Of a stretch of DNA of 64,000 nt, positions 30,729 to 34,248 are shown one piece after another. The notes beneath the pieces are model-generated. The model was not told the DNA's origin. It was given only the letters and a program-made list of their open reading frames with translations, and made no database searches. Each line of letters begins with the position of its first letter. The first letter of the stretch is position 1. The stretch covers positions 3 to 64,002 of the forward strand of contig JAEYWL010000046.1 of assembly GCA_023428915.1 (NCBI GenBank), read 5' to 3'. The position numbers and the translations under genes are program-made. Source of the stretch: Verrucomicrobiota bacterium (lineage in GTDB: Bacteria > Chlamydiota > Chlamydiia > Chlamydiales > JAEYWL01).

Positions 30729-31886
30729 TTACCGATTGAGAACTTTAAAACCAATCGAATTCTGAAGGGCTAAGCGGCGTGTTTTTCGTTTAAGGCCGCT
30801 TTGTATCATTTCTTCAATTAGTGTTGTGTACAAAATTTGCGGGTCGCTTTTTTCCCAAAGGTAGAATGAAAGGGAACCCGGTATGGTATTTACTTCATTA
30901 AAATAAAGTTGTTCTTTGGCTAGATCAAGCATAAAGTCAAAGCGGCTGATTCCTTGGCATCCCAGGTGGGAGTAAGCCTTTACAGCATATTGTTGCACCG
31001 CTTGTTTTATTGAAAGGTCTAAATCAGGGGGATTGATATGCCGGGTCAAACTTGCCATGCCTTCTGCAGGGCCTGTTTTTTTGCCGCCGCGCATGTATTT
31101 ATCTTCATAAGAAAGATGGGTGCCGGAAGCTATCGGAATTTCTACAGCCGAGGCAATCGGCGGTTCTCCATCCCTCACGGCCACATTAATTTCCATGAGG
31201 TTTGCGATGCAAGGTTCAATTATCGCTTCTTCATCGTATTTAAAAGCTAAAGCAAGCGAGCGTTTTAGCGCATCCAAAGAGTCGGCCTGCGAAATGCCGA
31301 CGCTGGAACCCAGTTTGCAAGGTTTTACAAATAGGGGAAAAGGCTTTGCGCCGAAATGGGCAAGGAGTTTATCTAAAGTTAGCGAAAAATTGTGCTGGAG
31401 CTCCCACTTTTTGCATATGCAGCCGGGAAGCACAGGGATGCCGAAATGGCTTAAATAAGCTTTACAAGCATATTTATTCATAGTCAACGAAGCTGCCAGC
31501 ACTCCGCAGCCTGTATAGGCCATGCCGGCCATTTCAAGCAGCCCTTGCACGCAGCCGTCTTCGCCATACTGTCCGTGAAAACACAAGAAAAAGAGATCGA
31601 CTGGAAGCACGCGATGGCTGCTTAATTCCAGCAGGCCGCCTCTTAATTGCGGCAAAAGGGTCACTTTGCATGTTTGGGTATTGCTGCTGCTGAAATTTTT
31701 ATAAAAAGACTTTTCTAGAAGCGGCTCTCCCGTATGCCATTCTCCCTGAAAATCAATGTAAACGGGTATGACCTCATATTTGCGCGTATCCATGGCGCTG
31801 ATGGCCTGCAAGGCAGTAATGATAGAAATTTCATGTTCAGTTGAACGCCCTCCAAAAAGGACGGCAATTTTTTGGCGCTGGTTCAT
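30729..31886 (-). CDS. ddl: D-alanine--D-alanine ligase family ATP-grasp enzyme
   Basis: KIAVLFGGRSTEHEISIITA, FFLCFHGQYGEDGCVQGLLE, and NEVNTIPGS near the C-terminus. Confidence 0.85.
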   Translation of the reverse strand: MNQRQKIAVLFGGRSTEHEISIITALQAISAMDTRKYEVIPVYIDFQGEWHTGEPLLEKSFYKNFSSSNTQTCKVTLLPQLRGGLLELSSHRVLPVDLFFLCFHGQYGEDGCVQGLLEMAGMAYTGCGVLAASLTMNKYACKAYLSHFGIPVLPGCICKKWELQHNFSLTLDKLLAHFGAKPFPLFVKPCKLGSSVGISQADSLDALKRSLALAFKYDEEAIIEPCIANLMEINVAVRDGEPPIASAVEIPIASGTHLSYEDKYMRGGKKTGPAEGMASLTRHINPPDLDLSIKQAVQQYAVKAYSHLGCQGISRFDFMLDLAKEQLYFNEVNTIPGSLSFYLWEKSDPQILYTTLIEEMIQSGLKRKTRRLALQNSIGFKVLNR

Positions 31887-33469
31887 ATCCTGCTTATGCC
31901 TTCATAAATATCGGGTAAGTCGTTTTCGATTAGGATCAAATCACCCGGTTGCTTGAGCTCTTGCAGAAGCCTGAAAGCTTGGGCTCTGTCCGGCTGCACA
32001 ATAATTTTATCGTCATTTAAGCCGCCAGCCTTCAGCCCCCCGATTAATGCCTCGCGGTTAGTAGGGCCTACGACAATGGCTAAGTCGCAAATGCCTGCTG
32101 CTTCCAGGGCCGCTGTCCGGTTAGCTTCCGCCTGAAGCTGTCCCAGCTCAATCATGCCGGGGGTAATCAGAATCCGCCGTTTGCAGGGCAGCTCTTTTAG
32201 AACGCGCAGCGCTGCGGAAAAACCGCACGGATTAGAATTGTAGGCATCTTGCAAGTAAGCGATGCCGCCGCTGTTTTGATAGCATAAACGATTTTCCACC
32301 GGTTGTAGATTAGCCAGGGCAGCTATCGCTAACTCCGGGTTAGCCCCCAAGGCGCAAGCTAAAGTAAAAGCTGCTGCTGCATTCGATATGGCCGGTTTGC
32401 CAAAAAGAGGAACAACACCAGCATAGGAGCGTCCTTGCCAGGTAAACACAAACTCCGTTCCAGTAGGGGTCGGCTTGTAGTGGGAAATCCAGCAATCTAA
32501 ACTGCCCTTGCCGGGTTCAAATCCATAGTACAACACGGTTTTGTTGATATGTTCCGTTCCAATTTCCCGCGCGCCCTGGTCATCGCCATTGCAAACTAAA
32601 ATCCCATGAACCGGCAAAGCTTCCGCCAATTCAGCTTTTGCTTTTTTAATGATTTCTTGACTGCCAAAACGCTCTAAATGGGCTGTGCCAATGGCTGTGA
32701 TAATGGCGGCAGAAGGCGGCGTAAAGCCGCATAGTTTTTTGATGGAGCCGAGGCCGTAAGCCCCCATTTCAAAAATAGCGTAGGTGTAGCCGGAAGTAAA
32801 GTTTTCCCTGATATGCCGGGTTGCCCCCAAGATGGTATTGATCCCTTTAGGCGGCCAGTAAGCAGCGCCTAGGCTAACCTGTAAAATTTGCCCTAGCGCT
32901 TCTTTGGTACTGGTTTTGCCATAGCTGCCGGTAATGCCGATAATATAGGGTGCGCCCGCCTGCAGTTTTGCTTTGGCCTCTGAAATAAAGCGGCGCTGCT
33001 TGCGTTTTTCTCCGGGGAGTGTCAAAAGGCTGCCAGCTATCAACAGCATGGGCAAGACTTGCAGCACAAATAAAAGGCTGGTAAATGGGTATAAAGCGGG
33101 CAGCCATAGAAAGCCACCGGTCATAACGACAAGAGAGAGGATTAAACTAAAGGTATAAAGAGTGCACACCCGTTCTGTCATCTTAAGAGGCAATTTACCC
33201 GATTTACGGGGATCTTGTTCAGTAAGAAGAAAAAACGTCAGCAAGCCGCTGCTGATTACTAAACCCAGTAAAGGGGAAAAAAAAGCAATGGCTAAACCCA
33301 AGATTGAAGCTGCCGTGCCTTTTGTTTCATAAAAACGGTTGCGGCTTATCCAATCCATGAATCGGAGGGGATGGTATTCTTCTTGCTGCAGATAGCGGGC
33401 GAAAAATAAAAGGCGTTGGGCTGCAAATAAAACGCAGAGAAGGTAATATCCGGCAATGATCAAGCTCAT
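31883..33469 (-). CDS. Membrane-anchored MurF-like Mur ligase lacking the canonical N-terminal domain
   Basis: About 150 aa with 4-5 hydrophobic helices. These are followed by Mur ligase motifs GITGSYGKTSTKE, ITAIGTAHLERFGS, NGDD, DAYNSNP and PGMIELG. It shares a 4-nt overlap with both neighbouring genes. Confidence 0.7.
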   Translation of the reverse strand: MSLIIAGYYLLCVLFAAQRLLFFARYLQQEEYHPLRFMDWISRNRFYETKGTAASILGLAIAFFSPLLGLVISSGLLTFFLLTEQDPRKSGKLPLKMTERVCTLYTFSLILSLVVMTGGFLWLPALYPFTSLLFVLQVLPMLLIAGSLLTLPGEKRKQRRFISEAKAKLQAGAPYIIGITGSYGKTSTKEALGQILQVSLGAAYWPPKGINTILGATRHIRENFTSGYTYAIFEMGAYGLGSIKKLCGFTPPSAAIITAIGTAHLERFGSQEIIKKAKAELAEALPVHGILVCNGDDQGAREIGTEHINKTVLYYGFEPGKGSLDCWISHYKPTPTGTEFVFTWQGRSYAGVVPLFGKPAISNAAAAFTLACALGANPELAIAALANLQPVENRLCYQNSGGIAYLQDAYNSNPCGFSAALRVLKELPCKRRILITPGMIELGQLQAEANRTAALEAAGICDLAIVVGPTNREALIGGLKAGGLNDDKIIVQPDRAQAFRLLQELKQPGDLILIENDLPDIYEGISRI

Positions 33470-34248
33470 GGCTTACCTAAAAAAGGTCTAATATAGGAGG
33501 CGCACAAATGCGCGCCGCAATCGGCAAACAAGTAGTGCCCTTTGGCAGGAAAAGAGTAGAATTGGGAGCCGGCAATCAAGTGATGCATTTTAACGCCGGT
33601 TTCTAAAGGCGTTTCAGTGTCGGCTTCGCCCCACAATAGCAGAGTTGGGGTTGTAATGGCGGCGATGTCATTCGAGAGATCTTCATTCACGCTTTTAACC
33701 AGAATTTTGCGCATAGGGCCTGCTTGCCGGTAATCAGAAGAAGCAAAACGGGGGACGAACCAGCTCTGAAAAATATTGCCGCCGCTTAAATAATCAAAGC
33801 CTTTTAAACCTTTGGCAGCCATTTTTAGGGAGAACAGCTTTATTTTATTGGGAAAAGAGCGCTTTCTCTTCAAGCCGGAAGCGCCGATTAAGATAAGGCG
33901 ATGCACTTTTTCAGGATAAGCGGCTGCAAAAGATAAAGCAATTTTGCCGCCAAACGAATGCCCTAGAAGATCGATTTTTTCTAAACCGGATTTCTCCATC
34001 CAGCTAAGCAGCCAGGAGGCGTAATCTTTGCTGCTCCAAATTTCTTCAGGGGGAGGGGCTTTGCCAAAACCGGGCAAATCCCAAAGATACACTTGAGAGT
34101 GGGAAGCTAGCAGTTCGCCAAGAGGCTTGGTTTGCACCATGGATTGACCCCAGCCATGCAAGATGCATAAAGGGAAACCGCTATGGCCTAAGACTTCAAC
34201 ATGATAAGGAGACATGCTTGCTCTTTTTTTATCAGTGAGGATACTCAA
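33466..34248 (-). CDS. Alpha/beta-fold hydrolase
   Basis: Nucleophile elbow LLGHSFGGKIA. HGWG oxyanion region. C-terminal GH (FPAKGHYLF). Confidence 0.75.
   Translation of the reverse strand: MSILTDKKRASMSPYHVEVLGHSGFPLCILHGWGQSMVQTKPLGELLASHSQVYLWDLPGFGKAPPPEEIWSSKDYASWLLSWMEKSGLEKIDLLGHSFGGKIALSFAAAYPEKVHRLILIGASGLKRKRSFPNKIKLFSLKMAAKGLKGFDYLSGGNIFQSWFVPRFASSDYRQAGPMRKILVKSVNEDLSNDIAAITTPTLLLWGEADTETPLETGVKMHHLIAGSQFYSFPAKGHYLFADCGAHLCASYIRPFLGKP

Follow-up and report, generated by a model that had tools for sequence, protein, structure and literature searches.

Organization of the operon

The window analyzed in this study is a stretch of 64,000 nucleotides from contig JAEYWL010000046.1 of the assembly GCA_023428915.1, which belongs to a bacterium of the order Chlamydiales (2.68 Mb, 131 contigs, 91% complete). 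An operon of three genes lies near its middle, and according to the list of open reading frames (ORFs) all three are on the minus strand, head to tail. They encode an alpha/beta-fold serine hydrolase (ABH), a membrane-anchored Mur ligase related to MurF (TM-MurF), and a D-alanine--D-alanine ligase (Ddl). The ABH gene (33466..34248) encodes 260 aa and matches the Pfam families Abhydrolase_1 and Abhydrolase_6. It was called from a TTG codon, and the in-frame ATG at residue 12 (position 34215) is probably the more likely start, because residues 1-11 are disordered in the AlphaFold2 model. The ligase gene (31883..33469) encodes 528 aa with the Pfam domains Mur_ligase_M and Mur_ligase_C. The ddl gene (30729..31886) encodes a DdlA-type enzyme of 385 aa with the domains Dala_Dala_lig_N and Dala_Dala_lig_C. 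Adjacent genes share ATGA overlaps of 4 nt: the stop of ABH overlaps the start of the ligase at 33466..33469, and the stop of the ligase overlaps the start of ddl at 31883..31886. A scan of the operon for promoters and terminators found sites no more frequently than in shuffled sequence.

The ATPase and C-terminal domains of the ligase are of the MurF type

The ligase carries the two catalytic domains of MurF at residues 176-528 (31886..32944, minus strand). Mur_ligase_M covers residues 179-370 (2.3e-34) and Mur_ligase_C covers residues 398-514. The three diagnostic motifs were located as GITGSYGKTSTKE (178-190), DAYNSNP (408-414), and PGMIELG (437-443). The GxxGKT/S pattern of the P-loop is present as GITGSYGKTS (178-187), together with E234 and H264. 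The motif table showed that every MurF motif is kept, namely the P-loop, Glu234, His264, Arg394, DAYNSNP, and PGMIELG; the last two are kept in at least 95% of 79 TM-MurF homologues. Canonical MurF has the same set, with D(A/S)YNSNP and GM(I/V)ELG as the general forms. The best sequence match in the PDB is E. coli MurF (1gg4), at 6e-35 with the single sequence and 1e-48 with a profile, and the best fold match found by Foldseek against the PDB is MurF 4qf5 (E 3e-23).

The similarity does not extend to the N-terminus. The murF model TIGR01143 gave 191.8 bits, below its curated cut-off of 288.6, and the match spans only profile positions 65-403 of 418, so that domain 1 is missing. The PDB alignments begin at residue 95 of 1gg4. 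No curated NCBIfam model covers the ligase above its own cut-off. Where canonical MurF has a UDP-binding domain 1 of about 80 residues, TM-MurF has a five-helix membrane domain of about 155 residues. It also differs from canonical MurF in its own C-terminal motif, ENDLPDxYE (residues 515-523).

A membrane domain replaces the UDP-binding domain

The membrane domain corresponds to residues 1 to about 155 (33005..33469, minus strand) and was delimited by hydropathy, AlphaFold2 helices, and conservation. The Kyte-Doolittle scan showed that this region is hydrophobic. In the confident AlphaFold2 model (pLDDT 87.4, pTM 0.82), a short helix at residues 34-44 accompanies the main helices, which are at 2-29, 50-62, 66-83, 99-122, and 128-172. 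Arg and Lys are abundant in the loops at residues 24-49 and 84-100. We place both loops in the cytoplasm, because an ATP-dependent ligase must be cytoplasmic and because the loops are basic. The predicted topology would have the N-terminus outside, the C-terminus inside, and five helices, with 50-62 and 66-83 forming a hairpin.

Conservation in the 79 homologues is concentrated in Q28 (100%), Y32 (100%), W40 (95%), K92 (99%), T98 (100%), R100 (99%), and E154 (96%). These residues map to the two cytoplasmic loops or to the stalk helix, and the loops can be described by the motifs QQxxY...W (Q28, Y32, W40) and KLxLxMTxR (K92, T98, R100), both present in the window ligase. At the membrane face, the conserved loop residues probably form a new site that takes over from domain 1 in binding the (pyro)phosphate-sugar end of the acceptor. 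No universally conserved residue was found within the bilayer among the aligned homologues.

The domain seems to belong to this ligase family. Pfam gave no family for the N-terminal 173 residues at E values up to 10. When the full ligase model was compared with the PDB by Foldseek, the matches covered domains 2 and 3 only. The membrane part was also considered as a fused PgsC-like unit, and this identity is unsupported, with no PDB fold match there. A search with the N-terminal domain alone against 1.84 billion representative proteins returned 189 proteins, and all full-length ones have the same architecture. The membrane domain therefore occurs only N-terminally, in TM-MurF-architecture proteins of about 505-600 aa. 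The first-pass annotation, made from the window sequence before any search, had described an overlapping trio of hydrolase, Mur ligase, and Ddl, in which the ligase keeps the MurF-like central ATPase and C-terminal domains and about 150 aa of transmembrane helices replace the UDP-MurNAc-binding domain. The gene coordinates, both ATGA junctions, and this domain architecture were all confirmed, the last by the motifs, the PDB and fold matches, the hydropathy, the AlphaFold2 model, and the start of the TIGR01143 match at profile position 65. The reading of the ligase as MurF-like, embedded in the membrane, and functionally tied to Ddl and the hydrolase was upheld as well.

The Ddl and the serine hydrolase

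The Ddl of the operon scored 272.1 bits with NF002528, above the cut-off of 262, and it is the sole strong PF07478 match in the genome. The closest PDB entry is DdlA of Xanthomonas (3r5f, 1e-50). Its omega loop keeps the Lys-Tyr pair ('EDKY') and carries a Gly/Lys-rich insertion, followed by a GM(A/L)S..R motif. An alignment showed that the insertion and the GMxS..R motif are common to module-linked Ddls (n = 65). Judged by these features, the enzyme should supply D-Ala-D-Ala.

ABH has a catalytic triad of Ser98 (GHSFGG), Asp210, and His238 and an oxyanion motif HGW at residues 31-33. It matches Abhydrolase_1 at 2e-26 and has the family-specific motifs DxPGxG (57-62) and SxDY (170-173). In 33 orthologues from many phyla, H31, G32, W33, D57, P59, G60, G62, H97, S98, G100, D172, Y173, D210, and H238 are invariant, and these 14 positions are at least 96% conserved across 76 orthologues. 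ABH thus appears to be a catalytically competent enzyme. Foldseek with the AlphaFold2 model (pLDDT 94.4) returned only generic small esterases, BioH, C-C hydrolases, and KAI2. The few candidates for ABH-TM-MurF fusions among the 1.84 billion representative proteins (P0158, P0242) resemble frameshifted gene calls.

Conservation and phylogeny of the module

The protein search returned more than 100 full-length ligase homologues with 46-55% identity, and the few that carry organism names span several phyla. A scan of one genome per species gave 80 loci. They come from Chlamydiota, Bdellovibrionota, Cyanobacteria/Melainabacteria, Acidobacteriota, Alphaproteobacteria, Bacteroidales, Clostridia/Tissierellia, Chloroflexota, Actinomycetota, Poribacteria, NC10, and Omnitrophota. 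The ORFs of 82 loci from at least 12 phyla were clustered, and the only recurring families were the ligase (82), ABH directly upstream (74), and Ddl (65). The neighborhood of the trio is conserved in this sense. Ddl is mostly directly downstream of the ligase; in Alphaproteobacteria it is divergent and upstream. With start codons in the related loci taken as estimates, an overlap between the stop of ABH and the start of the ligase was counted in 30 of 71 loci, and in 23 further loci the two genes are 0-30 nt apart. Tight coupling of ABH and the ligase is typical of the family.

In the phylogenetic tree, which was built with a simple model and read with the NC10 row (an over-long ORF) disregarded, the TM-MurFs group together in a single clade (support 95/99). 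Canonical MurF lies outside it, as does MurF', the MurF-derived part of proteins fused to alanine racemase (MurF'-Alr), which forms a clade of its own (96/92). The window ligase clusters with six other chlamydial sequences, and their neighbors are Bdellovibrionota, Cyanobacteria, and Melainabacteria. Another chlamydial lineage, G109, clusters with Omnitrophota (99/91). Because the chlamydial TM-MurFs group with other phyla, the tree suggests that the cassette was acquired horizontally at least two times in Chlamydiota, and that canonical murF and the Ddl half of murC-ddl were lost afterwards.

MurF genes in Chlamydiota

The genome that contains the window encodes MurB, MurC, MurD, MurE, MraY, and FtsI. 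Canonical MurF was not found in this 91% complete assembly. Its only MurF-like genes are the window ligase and, on a different contig outside the window, a MurF'-Alr fusion of 816 aa (C21:4481-6928; L001:1423-3873; NF008897, 765 bits). Domain 1, the P-loop, and the conserved Glu and His are still present in the MurF' part. Its third domain reads HSYCSD in place of DxYNxNP and GLKQTG in place of MxELG, and it has lost the SN motif; the other chlamydial fusions have likewise diverged.

TM-MurF was found in 8 of 120 Chlamydiota genomes (8 of 69 genera). None of these eight carriers has a canonical MurF above the cut-off, compared with 108 of the 112 non-carriers (Fisher p = 5.9e-10). MurF'-Alr is present in 20 of the 120 genomes, 15 times beside canonical MurF and 5 times beside TM-MurF, and never alone. 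This suggests that the widespread MurF'-Alr fusions are not the working MurF. In three chlamydial carriers (G105, G109, G121), TM-MurF is the only MurF-like gene. In G121, the distance between the trio and murC is a few kb, and the trio is on the same strand as mraY-murD. Waddlia chondrophila, which depends experimentally on peptidoglycan precursor synthesis (PMC3988822), is also a TM-MurF carrier without canonical MurF. Among 11 Chlamydiota genomes checked for the MurC-Ddl fusion, it is absent from the carriers, and the module Ddl is their only strong Ddl, except in G075. Three of the four non-carriers checked have MurC-Ddl, and in the fourth (G003) a contig end cuts the Ddl frame.

The first-pass annotation had argued for a non-MurF role beside a canonical murF in the dcw cluster. 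This view found no support in the comparison, given the genome without canonical murF and the exclusion pattern in Chlamydiota. At the sequence level, the window ligase is essentially the only murF of the genome, as the other MurF-like gene is the degenerate MurF'-Alr fusion.

MurF genes in other phyla

The same pattern was seen outside Chlamydiota. The Mur-ligase set of the complete Labrys okinawensis genome consists of MurC, MurD, MurE, FolC, and TM-MurF. Its dcw cluster reads ftsI-murE-mraY-murD...murC-murB without murF, and the spacing between murE and mraY is only 194 bp. TM-MurF is also the sole MurF-like gene in a complete Tissierellales genome, Kordiimonas, a Hyphomicrobiaceae genome, Blastochloris, Chamaesiphon, and a Terriglobia genome. 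The dcw cluster of an NC10 genome reads ftsI-murE-ABH-TM-murF-ddl-like-mraY-murD, with the trio in the murF slot between murE and mraY. TM-murF resembles canonical murF in this position as well as in its linkage to ddl. The NC10 genome keeps an ordinary MraY (TIGR00445, 411 bits). In a Chloroflexia carrier (G132), the 'canonical' MurF has no P-loop lysine. An intact canonical MurF next to the module was seen in two Clostridia only. The only MurF-like genes of three sampled Bacteroidales (G127, G135, G140) are MurF'-Alr and TM-MurF, and a 447-aa candidate proved to be MurD. TM-MurF may be the MurF of this gut order.

A 2026 paper on MurF'-Alr of Phocaeicola dorei reported that MurF' boosts racemase activity and has diverged from ordinary MurF (PMC13726279). 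The 'non-chimeric MurF' of that paper may be TM-MurF. The fusion resembles TM-MurF in that it is MurF-derived, belongs to the D-alanine branch, and shares genomes with it (5 of 8 chlamydial carriers and the three sampled Bacteroidales). It differs in that domain 1 is retained, the domain-3 motifs are degenerate, an alanine racemase is fused to it, and its clade is separate.

Other genes in the window

An orphan ORF of 114 aa (30360..30704, minus strand) begins 24 nt downstream of ddl and may be a fourth gene of the transcript. It has no Pfam or NCBIfam match and is absent from the conserved neighbors of the related loci. Its 3' end overlaps a convergent ORF (29332-30363) by 4 nt. On the other side of the operon, an amino-acid dehydrogenase of the Glu/Leu/Phe/Val type (34343-35422, plus strand) is divergent from it across a gap of 94 nt. 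The nearest family is the tryptophan dehydrogenase ScyB (348 bits, cut-off 600), and the gene is not conserved in the Waddlia or Bdellovibrionota locus.

Further away, at 36038-39973 (plus strand), a two-gene unit is tandemly duplicated. It consists of a small Cys-rich protein (86 and 103 aa) followed by a lipoprotein-like protein (328 and 319 aa). The lipoprotein-like copies are 64% identical and have no Pfam family, and the 103-aa Cys-rich copy starts with a hydrophobic stretch that resembles a signal sequence. The duplicated unit is followed by two FKBP/Mip-like peptidyl-prolyl isomerases in tandem. Two giant paralogous ORFs of 1672 and 1648 aa (6234-11252 and 12869-17815, plus strand) are 39% identical over their full length, with no significant Pfam family. 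For a protein of 1161 aa (25761-29246, minus strand), the only assignment is a DarT-like (ADP-ribosyltransferase) stretch at residues 604-650, which is short and weak (26 bits). A HipA-like kinase (HipA_C, 1.4e-46) is encoded at 41128-42381 (minus strand) and is a possible toxin of a toxin-antitoxin system.

Probable role of the operon in peptidoglycan precursor synthesis

In this study, we believe it likely that the operon carries out the D-Ala-D-Ala-adding step of peptidoglycan precursor synthesis, with TM-MurF in place of the absent soluble MurF. Ddl would make D-Ala-D-Ala. TM-MurF would then activate the carboxylate of meso-diaminopimelate (mDAP) in the MurNAc-tripeptide precursor with ATP and add the dipeptide. 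The ligation onto MurNAc-L-Ala-D-Glu-mDAP would take place at the cytoplasmic face of the inner membrane, where the two basic/aromatic loops would hold the (pyro)phosphate-sugar end of the acceptor in place of domain 1. We infer this activity and the identity of the acceptor, the addition of the dipeptide because the MurF motifs are retained. Apparently, TM-MurF is the only D-Ala-D-Ala-adding enzyme of the pathway in this and other genomes. ABH is probably a stoichiometric partner of TM-MurF, with which it would form a complex, and our guess is that it edits or trims precursors.

If TM-MurF is the working MurF, its acceptor is somewhat more probably UDP-MurNAc-tripeptide than undecaprenyl-diphosphate-linked MurNAc-tripeptide, because the cassette replaced murF in many unrelated lineages with ordinary MraY. 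The same substrate and product fit most simply with the replacement of murF without a visible change in mraY. A lipid-linked acceptor is nevertheless possible, and it would be a variant of peptidoglycan precursor synthesis rather than a separate pathway. In such a route, MraY would transfer MurNAc-tripeptide to undecaprenyl phosphate, TM-MurF would add D-Ala-D-Ala to the tripeptide of lipid I or II, and ABH would proofread or trim the lipid-linked stems. The exchange of a UDP-binding domain for one that is integral to the membrane, and whose conserved Lys, Arg, Thr, and Tyr residues lie at the membrane face, agrees with this route, as does the fact that the domain is never found apart from the ligase. 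A Mur-type ligase lacking domain 1 has a precedent in MurT, which matches the ligase weakly and acts, in MurT/GatD, on lipid II. A polyprenyl site would predict conserved residues inside the bilayer, and the homologues have no universally conserved one. The replacement of canonical murF in so many unrelated lineages with ordinary MraY, as in NC10, is also unfavorable to it. UDP-MurNAc-tripeptide builds up in model bacteria when the supply of D-Ala-D-Ala is blocked, which suggests that MraY uses this precursor poorly. We therefore regard the lipid-level route as rather unlikely. If it were true, peptidoglycan synthesis would pass from its cytoplasmic to its membrane stage at a different point across much of the bacteria, including Bacteroidales and several chlamydial families.

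It is far less probable that the ligase attaches the Ddl product to a membrane acceptor outside peptidoglycan, such as a lipid or polymer, and that MurF'-Alr is the true MurF. The domain 1, P-loop, Glu, and His that MurF' retains would allow this, two Clostridia hold an intact canonical MurF in addition to the module, and the conserved hydrolase suggests additional chemistry. Against this, three chlamydial genomes and many from other phyla have neither canonical MurF nor MurF', and MurF' is always accompanied by another MurF and has degenerate domain-3 motifs. In P. dorei it was reported to enhance racemase activity (PMC13726279), and in NC10 the module occupies the murF slot itself. The synthesis of a polymer like cyanophycin or poly-gamma-glutamate by the ATP-grasp protein and the Mur-type ligase, with the hydrolase depolymerizing it, is hardly credible. 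The first-pass annotation had seen cyanophycin-type logic in this pairing, and the membrane anchoring does recall PgsB/PgsC. The cyanophycin synthetase model TIGR02068 gave 19.9 bits (cut-off 850), and the family matches included no PgsB/CapB model. The ATP-grasp protein scores above the cut-off of a curated Ddl model and has the Lys-Tyr pair in its omega loop, the ligase has the MurF-specific domain-3 motifs, and the comparative genomics point to the MurF step.

Comparison with known Mur-type ligases leads away from several identities. Cyanophycin synthetase requires a single polypeptide with N, G, and M domains, and here the domains are on separate proteins. Its M domain and PgsB/CapB are Mur-ligase-fold amide ligases like TM-MurF, and PgsB is associated with the membrane and has the small membrane protein PgsC as its partner; only the general fold is similar, their reaction is a polymerization, and the motifs of our ligase are MurF-specific. 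MurT of MurT/GatD (6gs2, 7q8e) also has the Mur-ligase fold without domain 1, a hydrolase-type partner, and a cell-wall precursor at the membrane level as substrate. It differs in being soluble, in its DUF1727 C-terminal domain, and in amidating D-iGlu with ammonia from the glutaminase GatD. The MurT model NF045635 gave the ligase a distant 28 bits against a cut-off of 800, and the partner here is an alpha/beta hydrolase, with no GatD.

Several points weigh against TM-MurF as the working MurF. The loss of domain 1 removes the known UDP-binding site, and the use of UDP-MurNAc-tripeptide would not be self-evident. The strictly conserved catalytic ABH has no place in the textbook MurF reaction, and its conservation hints at different or additional chemistry. 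With its altered omega loop, Ddl could make a dipeptide other than D-Ala-D-Ala. The two Clostridia with both enzymes indicate that one form does not always make the other redundant. Residual or cooperative MurF activity of MurF' is possible, because it keeps domain 1, the P-loop, Glu, and His. It is conceivable that a canonical murF falls within a gap of the 91% complete assembly; the phylum-wide exclusion pattern disfavors this.

Our literature search turned up no account of a membrane-anchored MurF or of the hydrolase that accompanies it, and a PNAS 2023 survey of Mur chimeras makes no mention of TM-MurF. Sources that name the homologues label them MurF or 'Mur ligase family protein'. What appears to be new is the architecture of the enzyme; the biosynthetic step itself is ordinary. 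MurF is essential, soluble according to textbooks, and an antibiotic target. In many lineages the sole MurF appears to be a membrane-integral form with an obligate hydrolase partner, as in several chlamydial families (Waddlia is one example), some Alphaproteobacteria, Cyanobacteria, Acidobacteriota, NC10, some Clostridia, and probably Bacteroidales. If this is true, 'MurF present' in pathway reconstructions masks a different enzyme architecture, and inhibitors directed at domain 1 of MurF would not be applicable to organisms with TM-MurF. An extra enzymatic activity, that of the hydrolase, would sit within one of the best-studied pathways in microbiology. The MurC-Ddl and canonical MurF of Chlamydiaceae serve the same two steps in the same phylum as the cassette, and this pair is absent from the cassette carriers in the genomes checked. 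Besides the MurC-Ddl studied in Chlamydia, Chlamydiota would thus gain a second, horizontally acquired solution for the D-Ala-D-Ala branch.

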